A DNA stretch of 64,000 nt. Origin: an uncultured Solirubrobacterales bacterium. GTDB lineage: Bacteria > Actinomycetota > Thermoleophilia > Solirubrobacterales > 70-9. Position 1 is the first letter of the stretch. Every line of letters starts with the position of its first letter. The stretch lies in the NCBI GenBank assembly GCA_963821025.1, contig CAWGCG010000003.1, positions 1,144,931 to 1,208,930 on the forward strand, given 5' to 3'. A program made the translations under genes and the position numbers. Positions 10,813-55,361 of the stretch are shown piece after piece. The notes beneath the pieces are model-generated. The model was not told the DNA's origin. It saw nothing but the letters and a program-made list of their open reading frames with translations, and did no database searches.

Positions 10813-11772
10813 CTAGTGAGCGGTCGAGGCGCGCTCGAAGCGGCCGGCGAGCCGGCGCACCCGCTCGGCGAACTCGGGCGGCTCGAGGACGGTGAACTCG
10901 ACCCCGATCTCGGCGACGTAGACGGCGAGGCCGCCGAGCCAGTCAGAGCCGGCGCGCAGCAGGCAGCTGCGCTCGTCGATCGCCTCCAGCGTCCCGACCC
11001 CCGGCGGCACTCGGTCGGCGACCTCGGCGAGCGGCGCGTGCAGGAGCACCTCGGCGCGGTAGCGGTCACGCGCCGCCGAGACCCCGTCGGAGACGTAGGA
11101 GGCGAGGTCCTCGGCGGGCGGGGTGCGGGGAACGAAGCCGCCGCCGGTGCGCAGCCCGGGCGCGACCCGGTCGACACGGAAGCTGCGCCAGCCGCCGCGC
11201 GCGGTGTCCCAGGCGACCAGGTACCAGCGACGTCCGGTGTGCACGAGGCCGAGCGGCTCGACCTCTCGCCGGCTCTCTTCGCCGCGGTGGTTGCGGTAGG
11301 TGAACCGGACCCGATCGGAGTCTCGGCAGGCGGACGCGATTGCGGCCAGCGTGGCACCGTCGACCTCGGGTCCCGATCCGCGGTAGGGCACCGTCGCCGA
11401 CCCGATCGCGGTCACCCGCCGTCGCACCCCCGCCGGCAGCACCTGCTCGAGCTTGGCCAGCGCCCTGACCGAGGTCTGCTCGATCCCCGCGACCCCGGCA
11501 CTGGCAGCGGTGCGAAGGCCGACCGCGACCGCGACCGCCTCGCCCTCGTCGAGCAACAGCGGCGGCAGCGATGCCCCCGCGGCCAGCCGGTAACCGCCGG
11601 CGACGCCGCGGCGCGCCTGGACCGGGTAGCCGAGCGCCCGCAGGCGCTCGACATCGCGGCGAATCGTCCGCACTCCCACCTCGAGGCGCGCGGCGAGCTC
11701 GGGCCCGGCCCAGTCGCGACGAGCCTGCAGCAGCGAGAGCAGCTCCAGCAGCCTGGCGGAGGTGTCGAGCAT
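10813..11772 (-). CDS. HTH + WYL domain transcriptional regulator (YafY/PafBC-like)
   Basis: N-terminal wHTH ARLLELLSLLQARRDWAGPELAARLEVGVRTIRRDVERLRALGYPV. Central RRWYLVAWD WYL-type strand. Confidence 0.8.
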   Translation of the reverse strand: MLDTSARLLELLSLLQARRDWAGPELAARLEVGVRTIRRDVERLRALGYPVQARRGVAGGYRLAAGASLPPLLLDEGEAVAVAVGLRTAASAGVAGIEQTSVRALAKLEQVLPAGVRRRVTAIGSATVPYRGSGPEVDGATLAAIASACRDSDRVRFTYRNHRGEESRREVEPLGLVHTGRRWYLVAWDTARGGWRSFRVDRVAPGLRTGGGFVPRTPPAEDLASYVSDGVSAARDRYRAEVLLHAPLAEVADRVPPGVGTLEAIDERSCLLRAGSDWLGGLAVYVAEIGVEFTVLEPPEFAERVRRLAGRFERASTAH

Positions 11773-24023: not shown

Positions 24024-24401
24024 CTACGGCGCGGACCTCCACTGAGCCCGCCACTCTGGGGGGTCCCAGCCCTCAGCGACGTAGATCGTCTCGCGCGCGA
24101 TCTTGCCGCCTCGGAGCTCGTGGATGGCGACCCCGAAATTGACGGGGCCCTGGTCGTAGCTGGCCGTGAGCTCAACGACCCACAAGTCACCTCCGCCCCT
24201 GATCTCCTGGAACTCAAAGCTCACAGAGGCGGGATAGTTGCTTCTCCACTCGCGGAAGTTCTCGACGCCGACGAAGCGCTCGCCCGACTGCGGGAACTCG
24301 AGAACCGCGTCGTCGTGGTACATCTCATGAGCTCGCTCGGGATCGCTCGCCGAGTACTCGAAGTTCTGTTCGAGCATCGCCTGGACCGTCGCCGCATCCA
24401 T
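24024..24401 (-). CDS. SnoaL-like / NTF2-superfamily protein
   Basis: 125 aa. MLEQNFEYSASDPERAHEMYHDDAVLEFPQSGERF and later beta-rich segments are typical of SnoaL-like polyketide cyclase fold proteins. Confidence 0.65.
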   Translation of the reverse strand: MDAATVQAMLEQNFEYSASDPERAHEMYHDDAVLEFPQSGERFVGVENFREWRSNYPASVSFEFQEIRGGGDLWVVELTASYDQGPVNFGVAIHELRGGKIARETIYVAEGWDPPEWRAQWRSAP

Positions 24402-24439: not shown

Positions 24440-24476
24440 CAGTCCACTAATCCACCAACCGCACCTCGAGCGTCGG
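24440..24476. repeat. 37-bp direct repeat, copy 2 (stop codon plus last codons of the 667-aa gene)
   Basis: Partner of 23768..23804, 672 bp away. Confidence 0.75.
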
Positions 24477-26450
24477 CTGGCTCGCAATCCCCCCGCCGCC
24501 GCCGATCAAGCCGAGGATCCGGGCGACGTAGGCCTGGGTCTCGGGAATCGAGGGCACGCAATCGCAGGCGGCAACCGGCGCCGGCCCGGCGTTGTAGGCG
24601 GCCAGCGCCAGCTCCACCCGGTCGCCGAACTGCTCCAGCAGGTCCGCCATCAGATGCGCCTGGGCGTCGATCGCCGCCGCCGGATCGAACGGGTCGGTGA
24701 GCCCATAGGAGGCTGCGGTCCCGGGCATGAACTGGGCGATCCCCTGGGCGCCCGCGGGTGAGACGGCGAACGGGTTGAAGTTCGATTCGGCCATCAGCTG
24801 GGCGGCGAGCACCGCCGCCGAGACGTTCCAGCGCGCCGCGGCGGTCGCGATTGCCCGTCGAAAGCGAGCGGGCACGTAAGCCGGCAGGCTCGTCGCACCC
24901 GACTCGCCGTCGCCGCTCGCTGCGGCTTCGGGCCCGCTCGCGGCGCCGACCTGGTTGGCGGAAGCCGAGCACGGCGGCGGTCCCTCCGTGTAGCCGAAGT
25001 GCCAAGGCTCCCAGGAGTAGCGATTGAGAAAGCCGAAGCGCGGCGCGTTCGCCGCCAGCCAGCCGTAGGCGGCCGGTGGGGCGAGATCGAGCTCTGTGGC
25101 GCAGCGGTGGAGCGAGGTGCCCGGCGGGGCGACCCACTGCGGATCGGGGTTCTGCGCGAACAGGGCCGCCTGCTCGGCGTCGGAGCGAAAGCCCGAGTTG
25201 ACGACCAGCGCCAACCCGGCAGCCCTCGCCGCGGCCGCCATCCGGTCGAACGCCGCGGCGACGTCGGGGCGCATCCCCTCGCCCTGGCGATAAACGAGCG
25301 GTCCCGAATAGCCGCCGCCGGTTGCGGTCGCGGGAGCGCCGAAGGGTGCGGATGCGCCGGCGGCGGGAACCGCCTCGGCCTCTGCGTCGGCCACCACCGG
25401 CGGATCGGGGACCCCGGCGAGCTCGAGCGAGCCGCTGACCTCGGCGCGCACCCTCAGCGGGGCGAACGAATCGGCGTCTGGGAAGCGCAGCTCGAGCCGG
25501 CGCGGGTCGACCCCGTTTCGCTTGGCCGCCTCGAGCGCCGCCAGGGAAGCCTCACGCAGGTACTCGGCCTTGCGCAAGTGTGCCGGGTTCGTGGAGCCGT
25601 CGGCGAGCCGCGGCGCCACGAACAGGCGCTGGAAACGGTCACGCATCGACCGCGCCGCCGAGAGCGCGGCGAGGTCGGCGGACCGCTGGACCCTGGACTT
25701 GCCGCTGACCGCACCGCCGAAGGCGGCGAGCAGCAGGGCGCAGAAGATCAGCGCGAGCATGCCGCCGAGCGCCAGGGGCAGCGACTGACCCGTCTCGGCC
25801 GCGAGCCGACGGCGCAGGCCGCGTGGCCGCCGGCGCGGGCTCGGCCCGTCGCGCCCGGTCAGGCCGCGGGCGAGCCGCGCCGCCCGCAGCGAGGCATCGC
25901 CCCCGGGATCGATCCCTGCGAGAGCTCGCCGTCCGCCGACCCTGCCCGGCGCCCTGGTCGCGATCCGCACCCGCAGGTCGGCGGCGATCCACTCCCCCAC
26001 GCTCAGGGCGGCCAGCGCGCGCTGGGCGGGCAGCCGCGCTCTCGCCAGCACCGCGTCGATCGCGATTCGCTCGCAGTCGAGCGCCGCGCACAGGAGCCCG
26101 GCGGGGACGACGACGACCGCGGCGCTCAACGGCGCCGCCGCATCGAGGGCGGCGGCGAGCCGCTCGAGCCACCGCTCGTCCGCTGCCAGGCTGAGCCAGG
26201 CGAGGCGACCGCGAGCCGCCGCACCGAGGTCGGCGTCGCGCAGCCGCCGCTCGAGCTCGCGCGCCGGCCCCGAAGCCAGCATCGTCGGCCCCCTCGCCCG
26301 CTCCGCACCGACCTCGACCACCAGCACGCCGTCGTCGGCGCCGGGTGGTTCGGCCCGTTCTCGGGCACTCGCCAAGGCCACCGCGACCGAGGCGGCACAG
26401 GCGAGGCCGCCGCCGGACCCGGGCAGCTCGGTTGCAAGCACAGTGATCAC
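24447..26450 (-). CDS. Multidomain envelope protein: unknown N-terminal domain + TadG-like (Tad_N) membrane anchor + VanY/M15B D,D-carboxypeptidase + SLT lytic transglycosylase
   Basis: TadG-like region: ETGQSLPLALGGMLALIFCALLLAAFGG...RVQRSADLAALSAARS. VanY: SGFRSDAEQAALF, GTSLHRCATELD, EPWHF. SLT: AESNFNPFAVSPAGAQGIAQFMPGTA. 4-nt overlap with the upstream TadE-like gene. Confidence 0.8.
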   Translation of the reverse strand: MITVLATELPGSGGGLACAASVAVALASARERAEPPGADDGVLVVEVGAERARGPTMLASGPARELERRLRDADLGAAARGRLAWLSLAADERWLERLAAALDAAAPLSAAVVVVPAGLLCAALDCERIAIDAVLARARLPAQRALAALSVGEWIAADLRVRIATRAPGRVGGRRALAGIDPGGDASLRAARLARGLTGRDGPSPRRRPRGLRRRLAAETGQSLPLALGGMLALIFCALLLAAFGGAVSGKSRVQRSADLAALSAARSMRDRFQRLFVAPRLADGSTNPAHLRKAEYLREASLAALEAAKRNGVDPRRLELRFPDADSFAPLRVRAEVSGSLELAGVPDPPVVADAEAEAVPAAGASAPFGAPATATGGGYSGPLVYRQGEGMRPDVAAAFDRMAAAARAAGLALVVNSGFRSDAEQAALFAQNPDPQWVAPPGTSLHRCATELDLAPPAAYGWLAANAPRFGFLNRYSWEPWHFGYTEGPPPCSASANQVGAASGPEAAASGDGESGATSLPAYVPARFRRAIATAAARWNVSAAVLAAQLMAESNFNPFAVSPAGAQGIAQFMPGTAASYGLTDPFDPAAAIDAQAHLMADLLEQFGDRVELALAAYNAGPAPVAACDCVPSIPETQAYVARILGLIGGGGGIASQPTLEVRLVD

Positions 26451-26782
26451 GAGCTCTGCGGCTCTCGCACCCAGGCGCTCGAGCTGACCTCGAGCGCCCG
26501 CCCGACGGCCGCCACCGCCGCCGGCGGGCGCAGGCGCACTGTCAATCTGCCGCCGCTGCGGTCGAGCTCAACCCGGCCATCCGCCCAGCCCGGCAGCGCC
26601 GCTTCGACCGCCGGCCCCGGTGGCAGACCGGAGGCGATCGCCACGGCGCCCGCCTCGGCGGCGCCGTCGGCGAGCGTCAGCGAGTAACCGGCGGCGAGCA
26701 GCTGCAGACAGACGAGGCCGGCGAGCACGATCGCCGGCACCGCCGCAAGCAGCTCGAGCGACGCCTGGCCGCGCTCATCCAT
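26447..26782 (-). CDS. TadE-like pseudopilin family protein
   Basis: The N-terminus MDERGQASLELLAAVPAIVLAGLVCLQLLAAG fits the TadE G-x4-E plus hydrophobic helix pattern. Confidence 0.65.
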   Translation of the reverse strand: MDERGQASLELLAAVPAIVLAGLVCLQLLAAGYSLTLADGAAEAGAVAIASGLPPGPAVEAALPGWADGRVELDRSGGRLTVRLRPPAAVAAVGRALEVSSSAWVREPQSS

Positions 26783-27125
26783 CGCTCGAGGTCCCCAGCG
26801 GCTCGAGCGCGGTACTCGCCTCGACGGGAATCGATGGGATGCCCGGCAACAACGCGGGAGCCTCGACCCGGACGCTCACCGGACCGCCGCTGTTCACCTC
26901 CGCATCGGTCTCGAGCCATCCGGGCAGGACGCTTCGTGCCGCGCGCTCGGGGTCGCCGCCGACGTGCGCGGCACGCGCTCCGGCGCGAGCAGCGTCAGCA
27001 GCGGTCCAGAGCGCGTAGCCGGCGACCGCGAACTGGGCGACGGCGAGCAGCAGACCGAGCGCGATCGGCACCACGGCGACCAGTTCGGCCGCCGCCTGGC
27101 CTCGCTGCTCGCCGGCACGACTCAT
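26775..27125 (-). CDS. TadE-like pseudopilin family protein
   Basis: The N-terminus EQRGQAAAELVAVVPIALGLLLAVAQFAVAG shows the same pattern. 8-nt overlap with the next gene. Confidence 0.7.
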   Translation of the reverse strand: MSRAGEQRGQAAAELVAVVPIALGLLLAVAQFAVAGYALWTAADAARAGARAAHVGGDPERAARSVLPGWLETDAEVNSGGPVSVRVEAPALLPGIPSIPVEASTALEPLGTSSDG

Positions 27126-27226
27126 CGGCCGAGCGTCGCATCGCGGACCTCACCCGGGGCGCGGGCAGCGTGTCAAAAGGCGGACGAGCCGCGAGGGGAT
27201 CGCGCACGCCGTCGGCCAGCGCTCAT

Positions 27227-27273
27227 GGTGGGGCGGAAAATGCCGGCTCAAGCGGCGAAATCCGTCCCACCCG
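27227..27273. repeat. 47-nt conserved stem-loop motif, copy 2
   Basis: 41/47 identical to 5602..5648. Lies in the 213-bp spacer upstream of the TadE operon, next to another hairpin GGGTCGG-N8-CCGACCC (27278..27299). Confidence 0.6.
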
Positions 27274-27338
27274 TGGGGGGGTCGGGTTGCCGTCCGACCC
27301 GTGGACTGGGCTCGGTCCGCCGCCGAGCACGGGTGTGC

Positions 27339-27692
27339 TCAGTAGCTCGCGCGCGCCTCGGTCCAGACCCGGACGATCCCGTAGATCGACAGCCCGAGCA
27401 CGGCGAGCCAGACGAGCAGTCCGGCGCCGGTCTCGGTCATCTCGTCGGCTCCCGCGATCATCAGCACGATCGCGCCGATCGCACCGACCAGGATCGCGCG
27501 CTGCCGCTCGGTGAGGCTGAAGTAGGTGAGGCGGTTCTGTCGGTAGATCTGGAACCCTGCGAAGCCGATCAGGGCGAGGAAGGTGAGGCTCATCGCGGCG
27601 ACGATCGCGCGCGCCGCGTTGTCGCCGCCCGGGACCACGGCGACGATCAGCGCCAGTACGGCGATGATCGCGATGTTGCGCGCAGTTCGCAC
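27339..27692 (-). CDS. Small integral membrane protein (hypothetical)
   Basis: 117 aa with four hydrophobic helices. No recognizable family motif. Confidence 0.5.
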   Translation of the reverse strand: MRTARNIAIIAVLALIVAVVPGGDNAARAIVAAMSLTFLALIGFAGFQIYRQNRLTYFSLTERQRAILVGAIGAIVLMIAGADEMTETGAGLLVWLAVLGLSIYGIVRVWTEARASY

Positions 27693-27717: not shown

Positions 27718-27957
27718 TCACTTGGTCGTCATCACGACGACGCCGACCACGATCGCGGCGACGGTCGCCATCAGCCCGAGCGCGCCGAGCACCGCGTAGC
27801 AGGCCGCCTCGAGCGAGCGGCCGTCGCGGCTTGCTTCGCCGAACCGAGCCGCACCGAGGATCGCGAGCGAGAAGACCAGCGTCGTCCCCACCCCGGCGAT
27901 GAATGCAGCGACCACGGTCTGCCACAGCGCCTCGGTGTCGACGATCGTCGCGAGCAC
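27718..27957 (-). CDS. Small membrane protein (hypothetical, 2 TM)
   Basis: 79 aa with two hydrophobic helices. Sits 6 nt downstream of the PiT stop codon. Confidence 0.45.
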   Translation of the reverse strand: MLATIVDTEALWQTVVAAFIAGVGTTLVFSLAILGAARFGEASRDGRSLEAACYAVLGALGLMATVAAIVVGVVVMTTK

Positions 27958-35723: not shown

Positions 35724-37436
35724 TCACGCTGCCTTCCGGGCGCGCTCGGCCCGGCGCAGGCCGGCGACCCATTCGCCCGGGTCGATCTCGCCGGAGATCA
35801 ACGAAGCCAAGCCCTGCAGGCTCGGCGAGTCGATCCCCGCGCCGGCCAGGGTCTCGGCGATCAACGGCACCGAGTCGAGGCCCTCGGATGCCTGGCCGAT
35901 GCGCGAGGCGATCTTCTCTGAGGGGACCCCTGCGCCGAGCAGCTCGCCCGCTTGGCGGTTGCGGCTCTTCGGCGCCAGCACGGTCGCGGTCAGGTCGCCG
36001 ACCCCTGCCAGACCGGAGAAGGTCTCGAGCCGTCCGCCACGTGCGAGGGCGAAGTCGACGCACTCGCGCCAGACCCCGGCGGCGGCGATCCCGGCGGCGT
36101 TGAGGCCGAAGCGCTCAGCGGCCGCCGCCGCGAGCGCGGCCGCGTTCTTGGCAGCACCGGCCATCTCGACCCCGGTGACGTCGTCGCTGCGCTCGCAAAA
36201 CAGCCCGGCGCGGTCGAAGACCTCGCCGAGCATCGTACGCAGGTCGGGATCGGGGCTGGCGAGCACCAGGGCCGCCATCCCGGCCGCCGCCTCACGGGCG
36301 TGCGCCGGGCCGCCGAGCGAGGCGACCGCGCGGGCGCGCACGCGCTCGGAGACGTAGTCGTTGGGCAGCGCCCCCATCGGCTGCACCATGCCCTTCGACA
36401 ACAACAGCACCGAGGCCCGTGAGCCGATCCGATCGGCGAGGCCACCGACAACGGCGGGCAGCGCCCTCGAGGGAACCGCGAGGCAGACGAGGTCACAGCC
36501 GGCGAGCTCGATCTCGCTCGTGCGTTTGACCGTGACCCCCTCCGGGATCTCGACCCCGGCGAGGAACTCGACGTTCTCGCGGCGCCGCATGATCTCGTCG
36601 GCCTTCTCCTGACTGCGGCTGCCGAGCTCGACCTCGAGCCCGCCGCGAGCGAGGAGCACCGAGACCGCCGTGCCCCAGCTGCCGGCCCCGATCACAGCGG
36701 CCTTGCGCAGCGGCGGCAGCCCGCCGAGCCATTCCCACTGCAGCTCGATGTTCGGCCAGATCCGCTCGGTCACCGTCGCCGCCAGCGCCGGCGAGGGCCG
36801 CTCCTGGCGAGGGAAGGTCATCGGCTTGCCCGCGCGCAGCTTCACCTTGCGCGGGCGGATGCGCCAGCCCCGGCGTACCTCCTCGGAGCCGTGCACGGCG
36901 AGCGGCAATACCGCGGCTCCGGTCTCCAGCGCGAGCCGGCCGACACCGCGCTTCGGGCGCCCGAGCGAGCCGGTGCGGATCCTCGTCCCCTCGGGGAAGA
37001 TGACCACGGTCCCGCCGCGGGCGACGACGATCGCCGCGGTCTCCATCGCGACCTCGTCGGCCTGGCCGCGCCGGATCGGGAAGGCGCCGAGGCGCGACAG
37101 GATCCAGCCCTGCCACCGGTTCTCGAACAGCTCCACCTTGGCGACGAACTGCATCCGGCGCCGCCACGGCAGCAGGGCGCCGATCACGAACGGGTCGAGG
37201 AAGCTGCGGTGGTTGGAGGCGACGATCATCCCGCCCTTGAATCGTGCGTGCTCGCGACCGGTGCGCTGGAGGCGAAACCAGACCAGGAAAGCGGGCACCA
37301 AGAGGCAGCGAAGGAAGTAGTAGATGACCCGATTGGTCCCGCGCTCGCGCGCGTAGCGGTGATAGGCGTCGTAGCGCTCCTGCGTGATCACGTCGTCGGC
37401 GCGCGGCGGCGGCGAGCGCCGGGATCCCTCGTCCAT
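35724..37436 (-). CDS. Fusion protein: 1-acyl-sn-glycerol-3-phosphate acyltransferase (PlsC) + NAD(P)H-dependent glycerol-3-phosphate dehydrogenase (GpsA)
   Basis: N-terminal half: NHRSFLDP (HX4D) and FPEGTR. C-terminal half: AVIGAGSWGTAVSVLLA Rossmann motif, GVEMAGAAKN, and GpsA-like tail. Confidence 0.85.
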   Translation of the reverse strand: MDEGSRRSPPPRADDVITQERYDAYHRYARERGTNRVIYYFLRCLLVPAFLVWFRLQRTGREHARFKGGMIVASNHRSFLDPFVIGALLPWRRRMQFVAKVELFENRWQGWILSRLGAFPIRRGQADEVAMETAAIVVARGGTVVIFPEGTRIRTGSLGRPKRGVGRLALETGAAVLPLAVHGSEEVRRGWRIRPRKVKLRAGKPMTFPRQERPSPALAATVTERIWPNIELQWEWLGGLPPLRKAAVIGAGSWGTAVSVLLARGGLEVELGSRSQEKADEIMRRRENVEFLAGVEIPEGVTVKRTSEIELAGCDLVCLAVPSRALPAVVGGLADRIGSRASVLLLSKGMVQPMGALPNDYVSERVRARAVASLGGPAHAREAAAGMAALVLASPDPDLRTMLGEVFDRAGLFCERSDDVTGVEMAGAAKNAAALAAAAAERFGLNAAGIAAAGVWRECVDFALARGGRLETFSGLAGVGDLTATVLAPKSRNRQAGELLGAGVPSEKIASRIGQASEGLDSVPLIAETLAGAGIDSPSLQGLASLISGEIDPGEWVAGLRRAERARKAA

Positions 37437-46070: not shown

Positions 46071-47123
46071 TCAGCCGCTGTGGCTGTTGACGTTGATCAC
46101 CGTTCCGTCGGGGTCGGCGACGAAGAAGCGCCGGATTCCCCACGGCTCGTCGGTGAGCTCATAGACGATCTCGAGCCCGAGCCGTCGGGCGCTCGCGTAG
46201 GCGGCGTCGACGTCGGCGACCTCAACCGAGATCTGCGAGCGGCCGGTGTTCGGATCCCAGGACCGCTGCTCTTGCGAGCAGATGATCAGCTGAGTGGTCG
46301 GATGGCTGGGCGAGGACAACATCAGGAAGCCGGGCTCGTCCATGACCGGCTCGAAGCCGAGGAAATCCGAGTAGAAGGAACGGCTTGCCTCGAGGTCGCC
46401 GACCAGCATCGTCGGCATCGCCCGCCTGATCCACCCCTCCGAGCGATCCGCGAGCAAGAGCTCGGCTCGGTGCAGGTCGGCGGGCGTGGTCACCTTGAGG
46501 TTCTCGGGCGAGGCGGGCTCGACCACGACCGGCTCGCCGGAGCGCTCGACCAGCATCGCCTCGTCGGTTGCGCCCGCCAGCTCGACAGCGGGAACCTCGA
46601 GCGCGCTTCGCAGCGCCTGCGCGCGGAACGCCTGCGGCGTCTGCGCCGCCCACAGGTGCTCGCGGTTCTCGGTGGCGACGACCTCGCGCCCGCCGACACC
46701 GACCCGCTTGATCGTGTCGGTGACCGGGGTCGCGGCGACCACGGCGCCGAGGGCGGGATCGGCGGCGAGCCTGCCGACGACCGCGTCGATCAGCTCCGGC
46801 GTGACCAGCGGCCGGGCGGCGTCGTGGACGGCGACCAGCTCGCTGTCGGCGTGTGCGAATGCAGCGCTCACGGAGTCGGTGCGCGAGTCACCCCCGGCGA
46901 CGACCTCCAACGCGAGCTCGGGCGGCGCCAGATCCTCGATCTCGGCCTCCCGGCCCGCCGGCACGGCGACGATCGCGTCGGCCACCGTCGCCGAGGCCGC
47001 AAACGCCTCGAGGCACCAGCCGACCAGCGGTCGCCCGCCGACCTCGACCAGCGCCTTCGGACCGCCGGCTCGGAGTCTGTGGCCCGAACCGGCGGCCGCG
47101 ATCAGCGCGGTGGCGCTAGGCAG
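46071..47123 (-). CDS. ispD: 2-C-methyl-D-erythritol 4-phosphate cytidylyltransferase (IspD) fused to a C-terminal VOC/glyoxalase domain
   Basis: IspD: ALIAAAGSGHRLRAGGPKALVEVGGRPL, VHDAARP, and AQTPQAF. VOC tail: MLVGDLEASRSFYSDFLGFE...FFVADPDGTVINV. The conserved N-terminus precedes the first canonical start (46985). Start placed at CTG 47123 (alternative 47105). Confidence 0.8.
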   Translation of the reverse strand: MPSATALIAAAGSGHRLRAGGPKALVEVGGRPLVGWCLEAFAASATVADAIVAVPAGREAEIEDLAPPELALEVVAGGDSRTDSVSAAFAHADSELVAVHDAARPLVTPELIDAVVGRLAADPALGAVVAATPVTDTIKRVGVGGREVVATENREHLWAAQTPQAFRAQALRSALEVPAVELAGATDEAMLVERSGEPVVVEPASPENLKVTTPADLHRAELLLADRSEGWIRRAMPTMLVGDLEASRSFYSDFLGFEPVMDEPGFLMLSSPSHPTTQLIICSQEQRSWDPNTGRSQISVEVADVDAAYASARRLGLEIVYELTDEPWGIRRFFVADPDGTVINVNSHSG

Positions 47124-54506: not shown

Positions 54507-55361
54507 GTGGCGCAGTTTCCCGCCAGGGCGCAGGCGCAGGCGGCGGTGGCGGCGATCGCCGGACGCCAGCACGGCGTGATCAGCACCGCTCAGCTCCATC
54601 GTTGCGGCGTCGGGCCGACCCGGATCAGGGATTGGTTCCGTGCCGCGCGTCTGCACCGCATCCACCGAGGCGTTTACGCGGTCGGCCATGCCGCATTGAG
54701 CAACGAGGCGAGGTGGATGGCGGCGGTCCTCGCCTGCGGCGCGGCGGCGGTCCTCAGTCATCGATCGGCCGCCGAGCTCTGGAAGCTGCTCCAGCCGAGG
54801 CCCGGCCTGGTCGAGGTCACCGTCGCCACGGCCTCGGGGCGCGCTCAGCGCCGCGGCATCCGCATCCACCGGTCCTCGTCCCTGACCGGCACGGCCACGA
54901 CCGCCAGGGACGGGATCAGGGTGACCACGCCGGCACGCACACTCGCCGACCTTCGCCGGACCGCGCCCGGTGACTTCCGCCGGGCGCTGCGGCAGGCGGA
55001 GTACCTGCGTCTGCCGATCGGGACGATCGCGGAAGCCGACGGTACGCGGAGCGGGCTCGAGGCGCGCTTCCTCGCCTTCTGCCGGCGGCGGCGACTCCCG
55101 GTCCCCGAGGTCAACGTGAAGATCGGCCCCTACACCGTCGACTTCCTCTGGCGCCCCGAGCGGGTCGCGGTCGAGACCGACAGCTTTCGCACCCATGGCG
55201 GCGCGGTCGCCTTCGAGGAGGACCGCGCGCGGGACCTGTGGCTGAAAGCGCGCCGCTTCGAGGTCGTCCGGGTCACCGATCGCGGCCTGACCACGGATCC
55301 CCGCGGCACGGCGGCGGCGCTGCGATCGGTCCTCGCAGCAGCGCGCCGGGCCGCCCCATGA
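54507..55361 (+). CDS. AbiEi_4-like N-terminal domain + DUF559 (Vsr-like endonuclease fold) protein
   Basis: GVISTAQLHRCGVGPTRIRDW..RLHRIHRGVYAVG N-terminus. C-terminal VDFLWRPERVAVETDS...D...L...G..V.R is the DUF559 pattern. Confidence 0.6.
   Translation: MAQFPARAQAQAAVAAIAGRQHGVISTAQLHRCGVGPTRIRDWFRAARLHRIHRGVYAVGHAALSNEARWMAAVLACGAAAVLSHRSAAELWKLLQPRPGLVEVTVATASGRAQRRGIRIHRSSSLTGTATTARDGIRVTTPARTLADLRRTAPGDFRRALRQAEYLRLPIGTIAEADGTRSGLEARFLAFCRRRRLPVPEVNVKIGPYTVDFLWRPERVAVETDSFRTHGGAVAFEEDRARDLWLKARRFEVVRVTDRGLTTDPRGTAAALRSVLAAARRAAP

Follow-up and report, generated by a model that had tools for sequence, protein, structure and literature searches.

TadG/CpaL of Caulobacter crescentus and KilN of Myxococcus xanthus are apical, minor-pilin-like subunits located at the tips of Tad pili (PMC13533445, PMC12607857, PMC12075869). 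In the case of CpaL, the protein's own C-terminal strand licenses tip assembly, and a layout in which an insertion is followed by the terminal strand has been described (PMC13533445), while in Myxococcus three-gene 'tip' clusters of TadE/F/G-like proteins are encoded away from the motor (PMC12075869). The Flp/Tad locus Rv3654c-Rv3660c of Mycobacterium tuberculosis represents the actinobacterial 'helicase/secretion neighbourhood' Tad system (PMC9531140; TIGR03816, TIGR03819, NF041390). Regarding passage through the cell wall, the peptidoglycan hydrolase LytF of Streptococcus sanguinis helps the Com pilus to cross the Gram-positive wall (PMC12424861), and according to a 2025 paper no peptidoglycan hydrolase or lytic transglycosylase had been reported with a Tad pilus (PMC12307814). 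Here we analyze an operon of Solirubrobacterales for which we give about an even chance to the following reading: it codes for one half, the pseudopilins, of a split Tad-like system, whose TadG/CpaL-type apical subunit carries hydrolases that open the cell's own wall.

The window, a 64-kb stretch of DNA, contains three translationally coupled genes on the minus strand, on which all features given below are located: TadE1 (26775..27125, 116 aa, ATG), TadE2 (26447..26782, 111 aa, ATG) and a fusion protein (24447..26450, 667 aa, GTG). The TadE1 stop lies in an 8-nt overlap with the TadE2 start (26775-26782), and the TadE2 stop in a 4-nt overlap with the GTG start of the fusion (26447-26450). These ORF coordinates agree with the arrangement described in the earlier note, and the motifs quoted there are all present in the translations (RGQAAAELVAVVP, RGQASLELLAAVP, RVQRSADLAALSAARS, SGFRS, SLHRCATELD, EPWHF, AES and GIAQFMP). 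A spacer of 213 nt (27126..27338), presumed to hold the operon promoter region, lies 5' of TadE1; no sigma-70 or terminator consensus was found in it, and a GC hairpin at 27280-27300 is located directly past the stop of p117. The latter (27339..27692) is a small membrane protein with four transmembrane segments encoded directly upstream of the operon, occupying the same position in 75 of 82 loci and giving no family match in Pfam or NCBIfam, and its membership of the system is uncertain. Its assignment as an aspartyl peptidase was rejected because D24 varies among relatives.

Judged by their sequences, TadE1 and TadE2 are probably TadE-type minor pseudopilins with a predicted prepilin-peptidase site, G|QxxxE. 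TadE1 scores 23.1 bits against Pfam TadE (PF07811), 0.2 bits above the gathering score of 22.9, and TadE2 has no Pfam match of its own; against NCBIfam TadE_Rv3655c, with a cut-off of 40 bits, both are sub-threshold (24.6 bits and E 2.8e-5 for TadE1, 18.8 bits and E 1.7e-3 for TadE2). Among orthologues, Pfam TadE is matched by 29 of 40 TadE1 sequences (E<=0.01) and by 7 of 39 TadE2 sequences. By alignment of the two profiles with hhalign (probability 99.7%, E 2.2e-25, full length), TadE2 is a clear paralogue of TadE1. Both proteins display the class III signal peptide pattern, consisting of a short charged leader, Gly at position -1, Glu at +5 and a hydrophobic helix, which a hydropathy scan places at residues 16-34 of TadE1 and 11-29 of TadE2. 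The candidate site of TadE1 reads G9|Q10 A A A E14 (27084..27101); among 40 orthologues sharing 39-75% identity with the window protein, E14 never varies and G9 is conserved in at least 90%. That of TadE2 reads G5|Q6 A S L E10 (26753..26770), and none of G5, Q6 and E10 is replaced in any of 39 orthologues. Gly-1 and Glu+5 are unchanged, or almost so, across TadE1 and TadE2 orthologues 39-77% identical to the window proteins, and these filament hallmarks are under strong selection.

The fusion protein is conserved over its full length in 115 homologues and comprises, in order, a ParA-like domain, a TadG/CpaL-like pilin module, a VanY domain, an SLT domain and a C-terminal strand. Residues 1-200 (25851..26450) are assigned to a cytoplasmic pseudo-ATPase domain of the ParA/MinD fold, based on an AF2 model (pLDDT 93, pTM 0.89) and Foldseek, whose best PDB match is the ParA-family ATPase 3ea0 (E 2.5e-4, TM 0.51-0.56); all top 13 matches of the isolated domain are ParA, ParF, Soj, FleN, NifH, FlhG or MinD. 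This likeness is structural only and moderate (TM ~0.5, 14-16% identity), and the domain has no Pfam or NCBIfam match at E<=1. Its P-loop is degenerate (PGSGGGLACAAS, without GK[ST]) and varies among relatives, for instance as EAKGGLAVAAA or GAAEGSRGAAAA; the lysine of the Walker A GK[ST] is absent from every related locus compared, and residues 1-200 do not contain the deviant Walker A motif KGGxGK[ST]. The domain would therefore seem, from these residues, a scaffold at most and no ATPase. In 24 of 72 resolved loci (about one third) the ParA-like part is an ORF of its own, and it is thus separable from the TadG-like part: in these split relatives the TadG ORF begins 5-17 residues upstream of G|Q, with a short classical leader, M..(D/E)xG|Q.

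A candidate prepilin-peptidase site, G221-Q222 (25785..25790), is located between a basic linker (residues 195-221, with nine K/R residues) and the hydrophobic helix of the fusion. The site and its (E/D)xG|Q motif are invariant in 115 sequences and resemble the prepilin-peptidase sites of TadE1 and TadE2; Glu+5 is missing, which is typical of apical subunits. The pilin-like module (residues 210-362; 25365..25823) adopts a long α1 helix, containing the transmembrane segment 226-244, followed by a small β-sheet (AF2 secondary structure: H210-277, H294-311, E319-322, E333-341, E351-362). Residues 221-267 match Pfam Tad PF13400 at 29.0 bits (cut-off 22.3), and the helix matches NCBIfam TIGR03816, the Rv3654c family, at E 5.8e-5. 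The membrane anchor had previously been described as TadG/Tad_N-type; the Tad match stands, but the helix is internal, starting at residue 221 and not at the N-terminus, and the ParA-like domain ahead of it had been overlooked. The protein ends in a β-strand, P-x-LEVRLVD (residues 659-667; 24450..24476), a candidate self-complementing strand of the TadG/CpaL type: P659, L661, E662, V663, R664, L665 and V666 are at least 90% conserved next to a variable stretch (650-658), and AF2 models a strand at 661-665 with pLDDT ~90 and flanks below 50. A large internal insertion separates the 319-362 sheet from this conserved strand, and the translational coupling to two TadE-like genes corresponds to the gene context of TadG/CpaL-type proteins.

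The hydrolase half is the best-conserved part of the fusion. Residues 392-488 (24987..25277) form an M15B zinc peptidase domain of the VanY/LdcB type according to Pfam VanY (54 bits, cut-off 25, E 1.9e-14) and Foldseek, which returns LdcB (4mph) and VanY-B (5zhf/5hnm) with E-values of 1e-5 to 2e-6. The zinc and catalytic motifs of M15B, SxHxxxxxxD and ExxH, are present, and R422, S423, S446, H448, D455, E481 and H484 are invariant in the 115 sequences. Residues 534-626 (24573..24851) form a family-1 SLT lytic transglycosylase domain (Pfam SLT PF01464, 76.3 bits, cut-off 21.3, E 1.8e-21), in which E555-S556 aligns with the 'ES' of Slt70 (E478-S479; 1qsa), and E555, S556, GIAQF and AYNAG are likewise invariant in the 115 sequences. 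The family calls made in the earlier note (TadE, TadE, and TadG-like plus VanY plus SLT) hold with Pfam, NCBIfam and hhalign, barely in the case of TadE1 and by way of TadE1 in the case of TadE2. Some antibacterial effectors contain M15 and SLT domains. The fusion might instead be a killing tip that delivers hydrolases to the walls of neighboring cells, like the Kil Tad pilus of Myxococcus, in which the tip is a TadE/F/G-like trimer whose apical domain varies and some tips are encoded away from the motor (PMC12075869). We consider this very improbable: the cargo is highly conserved and not polymorphic, the module is single-copy and core and does not lie in variable arrays, and no conserved immunity-type gene was found beside the fusion, as the downstream gene varies between genomes. 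Since high cargo conservation and the lack of a conserved downstream immunity gene fit action on the own wall, the hydrolase cargo looks self-directed.

The operon occurs with the same synteny in at least 549 species genomes of Solirubrobacterales and is a fixed core-genome feature of this order, whose members are soil actinobacteria. The neighborhoods of orthologues, which the earlier note had suggested comparing, show the three-gene unit recurring with the same order and coupling in at least 75 (up to 84) related loci at constant synteny, and because of this recurrence the unit is not a chance arrangement. It adjoins pitA and uvrC, to which no obvious meaning attaches. The sources label the fusion 'hypothetical' or 'transglycosylase SLT domain-containing protein'; the family is thus common, as the earlier note had allowed for, yet unnamed and uncharacterized. 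These data also bear on an origin from a prophage or conjugative element, in which the fusion would be the remnant of a tail lysin, a tape-measure protein or a VirB1-like hydrolase. Gram-positive conjugation systems typically have enzymes that combine SLT with a peptidase, and among PDB sequences the SLT domain is matched best by a phage tape measure protein (9b45, E 9e-11), but the operon does not differ from its surroundings in base composition, its place amid housekeeping genes stays the same down to 37-42% identity, and a search of 2.9 million viral contigs gave 7 weak or partial matches, the sole good one at a contig edge. Such an origin is therefore extremely improbable.

The remaining machinery of a Tad system is not encoded nearby. 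Pfam scans of about 45 ORFs of the 64 kb, all but a few small ones, together with annotation by synteny of the stretch from 14 to 38 kb, gave housekeeping genes only and no Tad motor, Flp or prepilin peptidase, and a T2SSE-type Walker A and a Flp motif are absent from all six frames. The same absence, as claimed in the earlier note for the window, extends to motor, Flp and A24 peptidase within +-10 kb of the operon in 84 related genomes, and a complete Tad set with pseudopilins was found neither in the 64 kb nor in these flanks. This would suit a stand-alone, membrane-anchored bifunctional wall hydrolase with the TadE-like proteins as small accessory or regulatory membrane partners and with no motor or peptidase, the second option of the earlier note, as would the conservation maximum in the hydrolase half. 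We nevertheless regard that explanation as rather unlikely, given that the invariant Gly-1/Glu+5 and (E/D)xG|Q would make little sense unless a prepilin peptidase and filament-type packing were involved, that two other high-GC loci have a TadE1 homologue (37-39% identity) directly upstream of TadA, and that the order has a motor locus lacking exactly these parts.

This motor locus, a conserved CpaB-TadA-TadB-TadC cluster, is located beside the dcw cell-wall cluster of Solirubrobacterales, away from the operon. With the query TadA, proteins annotated as CpaF [Solirubrobacterales bacterium] share 82-100% identity, and 21 loci were counted whose TadA is at least 70% identical to L212 TadA. As far as the contigs reach, all 21 keep the order response regulator, HATPase_c, CpaB, TadA, TadB, TadC, uncharacterized gene, mraZ, rsmH and ftsI, and every one that extends there is located directly upstream of mraZ-rsmH-ftsI-murE-murF-mraY. 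No prepilin-like ORF, ParA Walker A, TadZ, Flp, TadE/TadG or A24 peptidase match was found in these loci; a Flp major pilin and TadV or another prepilin peptidase were detected neither there nor in the window or the 84 related loci. TadA is of the Rv3659c type (TIGR03819, 350.7 bits), in agreement with the Rv3655c/Rv3654c-type matches of the window proteins. By their gene content the operon and the motor locus appear complementary. Their presence in one genome is inferred, a point that counts against the split system and for the stand-alone hydrolase. The earlier proposal of a minimal or stand-alone device is weakened by this locus, and the possibility raised with it, that a tad locus elsewhere lacks TadE/TadG and the operon is a displaced piece, is largely borne out at the level of the order.

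The position of the motor locus also invites a different function for the same parts: a domesticated Tad-like wall-remodeling machine, not a pilus, in which motor and operon form a pseudopilus 'piston' for septal or polar wall cutting in division, daughter-cell separation or wall turnover. Its only subunits would be TadE1, TadE2 and the hydrolase-bearing TadG, and the ParA/MinD-like domain would position the machine. The fixed place directly upstream of the mraZ-to-mraY genes, the lack of Flp in both the operon window and the motor locus, the core and syntenic, not island-like, character of the two loci and the MinD/ParA fold of the fused domain speak for it; moreover, the mycobacterial TadZ homologue Rv3660c is named Ssd, for septum site determination. 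On the other hand, the dcw adjacency is perhaps mere synteny, given that the operon adjoins pitA and uvrC without obvious meaning, and Flp genes are tiny and could sit elsewhere in the genome. We place this machine on the unlikely side.

Because the motor locus of the order lacks its own TadE, TadG, Flp and TadZ, the operon is most simply the displaced pseudopilin half, and the system, a type IVc filament, would be split between two core-genome loci in Solirubrobacterales, a stand-alone role being unlikely. For such a split Tad-like system, TadE1, TadE2 and the fusion would form a tip or initiation complex on the CpaB-TadA-TadB-TadC motor, placing the VanY and SLT domains at the apex, where classical TadG/CpaL proteins have an adhesin module. 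The hydrolases would cut the thick wall of the cell itself, at both its glycan strands and its stem peptides, and let the (pseudo)pilus pass, following the wall-opening logic of FlgJ at the flagellar rod tip. Meanwhile, the ParA-like domain could take on TadZ-like docking or positioning, a function missing from the motor locus, either after its release by prepilin peptidase at G221|Q222 or as a separate protein, the form encoded in about one third of related genomes. Several points count against this reading: no Flp or peptidase was found in the loci searched, TadE1 is marginal and TadE2 has no direct family match, we know of no other prepilin-like protein with a folded leader of 220 residues, and Tad pili are typically accessory islands, for which single-copy presence in strict synteny throughout an order is unusual. 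If it is true, this is perhaps the first Tad-type pilus machine seen with its own tool for opening the wall; the novelty claimed earlier for a muralytic Tad module fits the 2025 statement (PMC12307814).

Compared with known systems, the Streptococcus sanguinis enzyme LytF differs in being a separate secreted enzyme, outside any pilin-like subunit, and in its filament class (Com, T4dP) (PMC12424861). The fusion resembles TadG/CpaL/KilN as the large third member of a TadE/TadF/TadG-like trio with a PF13400-type helix, a small β-sheet, a big cargo insertion and a conserved extreme C-terminal strand; these trios, too, can be encoded away from the motor. Unlike them, it carries two peptidoglycan hydrolases as cargo, where they have an adhesin or a domain of unknown function, has a folded ParA-like cytoplasmic domain of 200 aa ahead of its processing site, and is encoded without neighboring Tad motor genes. 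With the M. tuberculosis locus the system shares subfamilies (TadE1/TadE2 with TadE_Rv3655c, the fusion helix with Rv3654c, TadA with TIGR03819), whereas that locus consists of seven contiguous genes in which Rv3654c has 84 aa and no enzyme domain. In Solirubrobacterales there are two loci. The Rv3654c-like protein bears VanY and SLT domains, and fused or adjacent to it is the TadZ-like part, a degenerate ParA fold. Residues 1-200 resemble TadZ/CpaE, the Tad positioning ATPase, in being cytoplasmic, Tad-associated and of the ParA/MinD fold, and the motor locus is without TadZ; they differ in having no detectable sequence similarity, no Walker A GK[ST] and no receiver-like N-domain, and in being fused to a pseudopilin-like protein.

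Two further analogies lie outside the Tad family. FlgJ, a flagellar rod cap fused to a muramidase, follows the same logic: as an envelope-spanning structure grows, its tip or cap component carries, by covalent fusion, the peptidoglycan hydrolase that clears the way through the wall in front. The fold and machine of FlgJ are unrelated, and it has a single hydrolase domain and neither a pilin-like helix nor a cytoplasmic domain. The VirB1-like bifunctional hydrolases of Gram-positive conjugation (CwlT, PrgK, TcpG and TraG of pIP501) likewise join glycan-strand-cleaving and peptidase domains in a membrane-anchored protein of a trans-envelope machine in a thick-walled bacterium; their peptidases are NlpC/P60 or CHAP and not M15B, and they are not pilin-like, serve type IV secretion and are carried on mobile elements.

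The operon consists of three minus-strand genes, encoding TadE1 (26775-27125; 116 aa, ATG start), TadE2 (26447-26782; 111 aa, ATG start) and a 667-aa fusion protein (24447-26450; GTG start). Successive open reading frames (ORFs) overlap by 8 nt and then by 4 nt, the codon-position GC of all three follows the pattern of this genome's real genes, and ORF analysis confirms the positions that the earlier note had assigned to them. The same note had named the products as two TadE-like pseudopilins and a TadG-like protein carrying VanY and SLT hydrolase domains, an assignment that the domain matches uphold with unequal strength. TadE1 matches the Pfam TadE family marginally (23.1 bits against a cut-off of 22.9), while TadE2 has no Pfam match and joins the putative family only by way of TadE1, of which it is a full-length paralogue by profile-profile comparison (probability 99.7%, E 2e-25). 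In the fusion, Tad (PF13400; residues 221-267), VanY (392-488) and SLT (534-626) all exceed their Pfam cut-offs, and NCBIfam pointers indicate actinobacterial subfamilies, TadE_Rv3655c for TadE1 and TadE2 and the Rv3654c family for the fusion helix. The Tad helix, which that note described as a TadG/Tad_N-type membrane anchor, is not N-terminal: residues 1-200 form a separate conserved domain ahead of it.

This domain is conserved over its entire length in 115 homologues and has no sequence-profile match in Pfam or NCBIfam. AlphaFold models it as an alternating β/α domain (pLDDT 93, pTM 0.89), and the top 13 Foldseek matches in the PDB are all ParA/MinD-class ATPases, led by 3ea0 (E 2.5e-4, TM 0.51-0.56) and followed by ParF, Soj, FleN, NifH, FlhG and MinD. 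At the P-loop position the fusion reads PGSGGGLACAAS and relatives vary (e.g. EAKGGLAVAAA), GK[ST] occurring in none. Because of the ParA/MinD-class structural matches, the P-loop lacking GK[ST] and the missing profile match, residues 1-200 are identified as a predicted ParA-fold pseudo-ATPase. A sequence link to TadZ was sought with phmmer (residues 1-370 against 1.84 billion representatives) and none emerged: the 150 listed of 454 matches aligned to the N-terminal domain, to the TadG part or to both, and every listed match inspected is a member of the fusion's own family. The domain is followed by a basic linker (nine K/R within residues 195-221) and then by the sole strong transmembrane segment of the fusion (226-244); therefore, the ParA-like domain is cytoplasmic and everything past the helix lies outside.

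The candidate prepilin-peptidase sites (arrows) are G9↓Q10-A-A-A-E14 in TadE1 and G5↓Q6-A-S-L-E10 in TadE2. Among orthologues sharing 39-77% identity with the window proteins, neither family varies at the +5 Glu; the -1 Gly is either invariant or reaches at least 90% conservation, a few members having Ala instead. In the fusion, G221-Q222 is invariant with E/D at -3, so that the (E/D)xG↓Q context is common to it and the TadEs; it has no Glu+5, a residue that apical subunits of type IV filament tips usually lack. Without a prepilin peptidase and helices packed as in filaments, such conservation would be hard to explain.

In the structural model of the fusion, a very long helix (210-277) is followed by another helix and by three strands (319-362), a predicted pilin-like layout. 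The VanY domain, for which Foldseek returns LdcB and VanY-B (E down to 2e-6), is followed in the model by a disordered linker, the SLT domain, a variable stretch and a terminal strand (661-665; pLDDT ~90). The M15B zinc and catalytic residues S446, H448, D455, E481 and H484 are invariant, as is the SLT catalytic glutamate E555, the counterpart of Slt70 E478 in the alignment. The C-terminus, P-x-L-E-V-R-L-V-D, is at least 90% conserved; the ten residues before it are not. The predicted succession of pilin-like module, large insertion and conserved strand at the extreme C-terminus is the one described in 2026 for TadG/CpaL proteins, in which that strand completes their own pilin sheet and licenses assembly of the tip (PMC13533445); in the fusion, pairing of the strand with the sheet is a candidate feature. 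BLASTP of the fusion's pilin-like module against a short protein resembling TadG, from a different actinobacterial locus (L098), gave no significant match.

Thousands of homologues share the 667-aa architecture; the best 120 have 58-76% identity, almost all over the full length. When one genome per GTDB species was scanned, at least 549 genomes contained it; the best 80 of these are nearly all labelled Solirubrobacterales or Thermoleophilia metagenome-assembled genomes and include five complete chromosomes. Source annotations call the fusion only 'hypothetical' or 'transglycosylase SLT domain-containing protein', and the literature on Tad or pili in Thermoleophilia yielded nothing specific. 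In 84 related loci the genes keep an essentially fixed order of pitA, p79, p117, TadE1, TadE2 and fusion, followed downstream by maoC and uvrC; pitA-to-uvrC synteny is still kept at 37-42% identity, and the 4-nt overlap between the TadE2 stop and the fusion start recurs in most genomes. The operon is an order-wide, single-copy, core-genome module and not a mobile element. This distribution excludes a phage or plasmid origin, and a prophage or conjugative origin is likewise rejected, since viral contigs give only seven matches, all weak or partial. One 59-kb contig filed as viral (IMGVR_UViG_3300044468_000011; L085, 1-810) starts inside a fusion homologue (62% identity, residues 214-484) and is probably host DNA or a provirus beside the operon locus.

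The ParA-like and TadG-hydrolase parts occupy one ORF in 48 of the 84 loci and separate ORFs in 24; in the other 12, tblastn did not detect the N-terminal part, though many have long ORFs. The split arises through an in-frame stop (L023, L029), a change of frame or 1-4.6 kb of inserted genes. One sublineage (L068, 8846-9862; also L058, L063, L070, L071, L077 and L082) carries 1-4.6 kb of foreign genes between the two ORFs; in L068 the insert encodes a small secreted protein as well as a VapC-like toxin with a PIN domain, and both flanking ORFs are intact. Split-form TadG ORFs open with a short, charged, textbook leader (e.g. MDARGENG↓QVLL, MEARREDG↓QALL, MSEDG↓QVLP), and the ParA-like protein is still encoded, by a separate gene; the mature outside protein can therefore be produced with no ParA-like domain attached. 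Such a pattern would be expected if the fused precursor were normally cut at G221↓Q222.

GC content is 66-74% across the whole window, with no local anomaly. The remainder of the 64 kb is housekeeping in character (including argS, gap-pgk-tpi, uvrC, rapZ, pitA/phoU, cysS, ispD, carD, disA, radA, clpC, lysS, folBKP, ftsH), and the T2SSE Walker A and Flp motifs are absent from all its frames, in agreement with the earlier observation that no Flp or Tad motor ATPase is encoded here. A Flp gene was also looked for in the 213-nt spacer and among small ORFs, and none was found. Two small membrane-protein genes, p79 (27718-27957, minus; two transmembrane segments) and p117 (27339-27692, minus; four), separate pitA from the operon in almost all relatives, neither with a family match; at one locus (L002) p79 abuts or overlaps the pitA stop. 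p117 was considered as a minimal prepilin peptidase, given a 'PGGD' motif, but D24 is unconserved and the candidate was rejected. A GC-rich hairpin without a T-run (27280-27300, minus; GGGTCGG-ACGGCAA-CCGACCC), about 40 nt past the p117 stop, may separate p117 from the TadE operon; a sigma-70 and terminator scan of the operon gave nothing, as expected at 72% GC. A SnoaL-like gene (24024-24401, minus), 45 nt downstream of the fusion, is restricted to the lineage of this genome: a tblastn search of the 84 related loci did not detect it, and its place there is taken by other small, unrelated genes. Elsewhere in the window, a 570-aa protein (35724-37436, minus; 555 aa in L001) fuses a PlsC-type acyltransferase to an NAD-dependent glycerol-3-phosphate dehydrogenase (GpsA), and IspD (MEP cytidylyltransferase; 46071-46985, minus) has a C-terminal glyoxalase/VOC domain. 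An AbiEi-antitoxin/MTES_1575-type gene (54507-55361, plus) and a WYL-domain HTH regulator (10813-11772, minus), set amid housekeeping genes, are possible small defence or regulatory insertions.

The 84 operon loci (1.6 Mb) contain no T2SSE ATPase, Flp or A24 peptidase motif. A hand-written CpaF consensus retrieved Arthrobacter and proteobacterial CpaF from PLSDB and only Firmicutes from the protein database, and did not reach the order. A Solirubrobacterales TadA was found by scanning metagenome contigs for high-GC coding of GGTGSGKTTLLNA and ranking the matches by tetranucleotide distance to the 84 loci, the nearest (L106, P0391) serving as query. The best 120 relatives of this TadA are 82-100% identical, save one anomalous 653-aa entry at 68%, and 8 of the 11 among them with an NCBI name are labelled CpaF or secretion protein of 'Solirubrobacterales bacterium'. 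On contigs of 2.5 and 3.1 Mb the gene order is response regulator, HATPase_c, CpaB (SAF/RcpC; TIGR03177, 67.6 bits), TadA (TIGR03819 'heli_sec_ATPase', 350.7 bits), TadB and TadC; past TadC come a conserved uncharacterised gene of 345-360 aa on the opposite strand and then mraZ, rsmH, ftsI, murE, murF and mraY. This motor locus is fixed immediately upstream of mraZ and the dcw cell-wall cluster (L212, 4702-14066; L213, 6775-13971; and 19 further loci), and in all 21 loci whose TadA shares at least 70% identity with the L212 protein the same order is kept as far as the contig extends. No prepilin-like ORF, ParA-type Walker A or A24 match was found in the motor loci. Since these provide motor, platform and CpaB, and the operon two pseudopilins, a TadZ-like fold and a TadG-like subunit, the two loci, sampled from different sublineages, appear complementary. 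TadA is immediately preceded by a TadE1 homologue (37-39% identity) at two further loci of high GC, L098 and L143. A hydrolase acting alone, as in the stand-alone device suggested earlier, conflicts both with the conserved prepilin hallmarks and with this complementary motor locus in the same order.

The reading with the best support takes the operon to encode the tip or initiation complex (TadE, TadE and a TadG/CpaL-like protein) of a Tad-type system spread over two core loci that would both be present in the same genome. The three products would assemble into a complex whose apical subunit bears an active peptidase and lytic transglycosylase where an adhesin is expected. As a (pseudo)pilus grows in a thick-walled cell, the hydrolases at its apex would make local openings in the cell's own wall. 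Against an antibacterial tip, which would direct the same enzymes at neighbouring bacteria, it counts that neither an immunity gene nor cargo diversity accompanies them. A division-linked wall-remodelling machine that makes no pilus is an attractive alternative, to which the dcw adjacency, the ParA/MinD fold, core-genome status and the failure to find Flp all point, although its basis is adjacency and absence of evidence. In a fuller version, which we consider improbable, the Tad-type motor of Solirubrobacterales has become a pseudopilus-only wall-cutting machine: CpaB-TadA-TadB-TadC would build a short pseudopilus of TadE1, TadE2 and the TadG-like protein and no adhesive pilus, driving the M15 peptidase and lytic transglycosylase into the cell's own wall for division, separation or conduit opening. 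The 220-residue folded, ParA/MinD-like 'leader' would position or dock the precursor before the prepilin peptidase removes it at G221↓Q222 and, if so, would be by far the longest of any type IV prepilin-like protein.

Under the tip-complex reading, two features are odd: a Tad-like system spread over two fixed core-genome loci, one adjoining the division and cell-wall cluster, and a ParA-fold pseudo-ATPase fused ahead of a prepilin-type cleavage site. Both occur in the Solirubrobacterales, abundant soil bacteria with almost no genetics. The arrangement bears on the open question of how type IV filaments, and Tad pili especially, pass through peptidoglycan. FlgJ at the flagellar rod tip follows the same wall-opening logic, as do the VirB1-like bifunctional hydrolases of Gram-positive conjugation, and in a lineage with thick walls, hydrolases that form part of the apical pseudopilin offer a testable candidate mechanism resembling FlgJ. 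The split arrangement in Solirubrobacterales differs from that in a Gaiellaceae locus of the sister order (L181, 4635-13306), a classical Tad locus whose genes are contiguous and encode two Flp pilins (EEGQALVEYAL), a CpaF of 451 aa and a product of 623 aa resembling a TadB-TadC fusion. In Myxococcus, gene trios for exchangeable Tad tips can lie away from the motor (PMC12075869). According to a 2025 structural paper, no wall hydrolase had so far been tied to the Tad pilus (PMC12307814), and in the literature examined the only enzyme known for Gram-positive Com pili is a separate, trans-acting one (PMC12424861). TadG/CpaL-type tips with other cargo are already known, and what appears to be new here is a peptidase and a lytic transglycosylase on the putative Tad apical subunit, which would add enzymes to the 'adaptable tip' idea of TadG, CpaL and KilN with exchangeable cargo.
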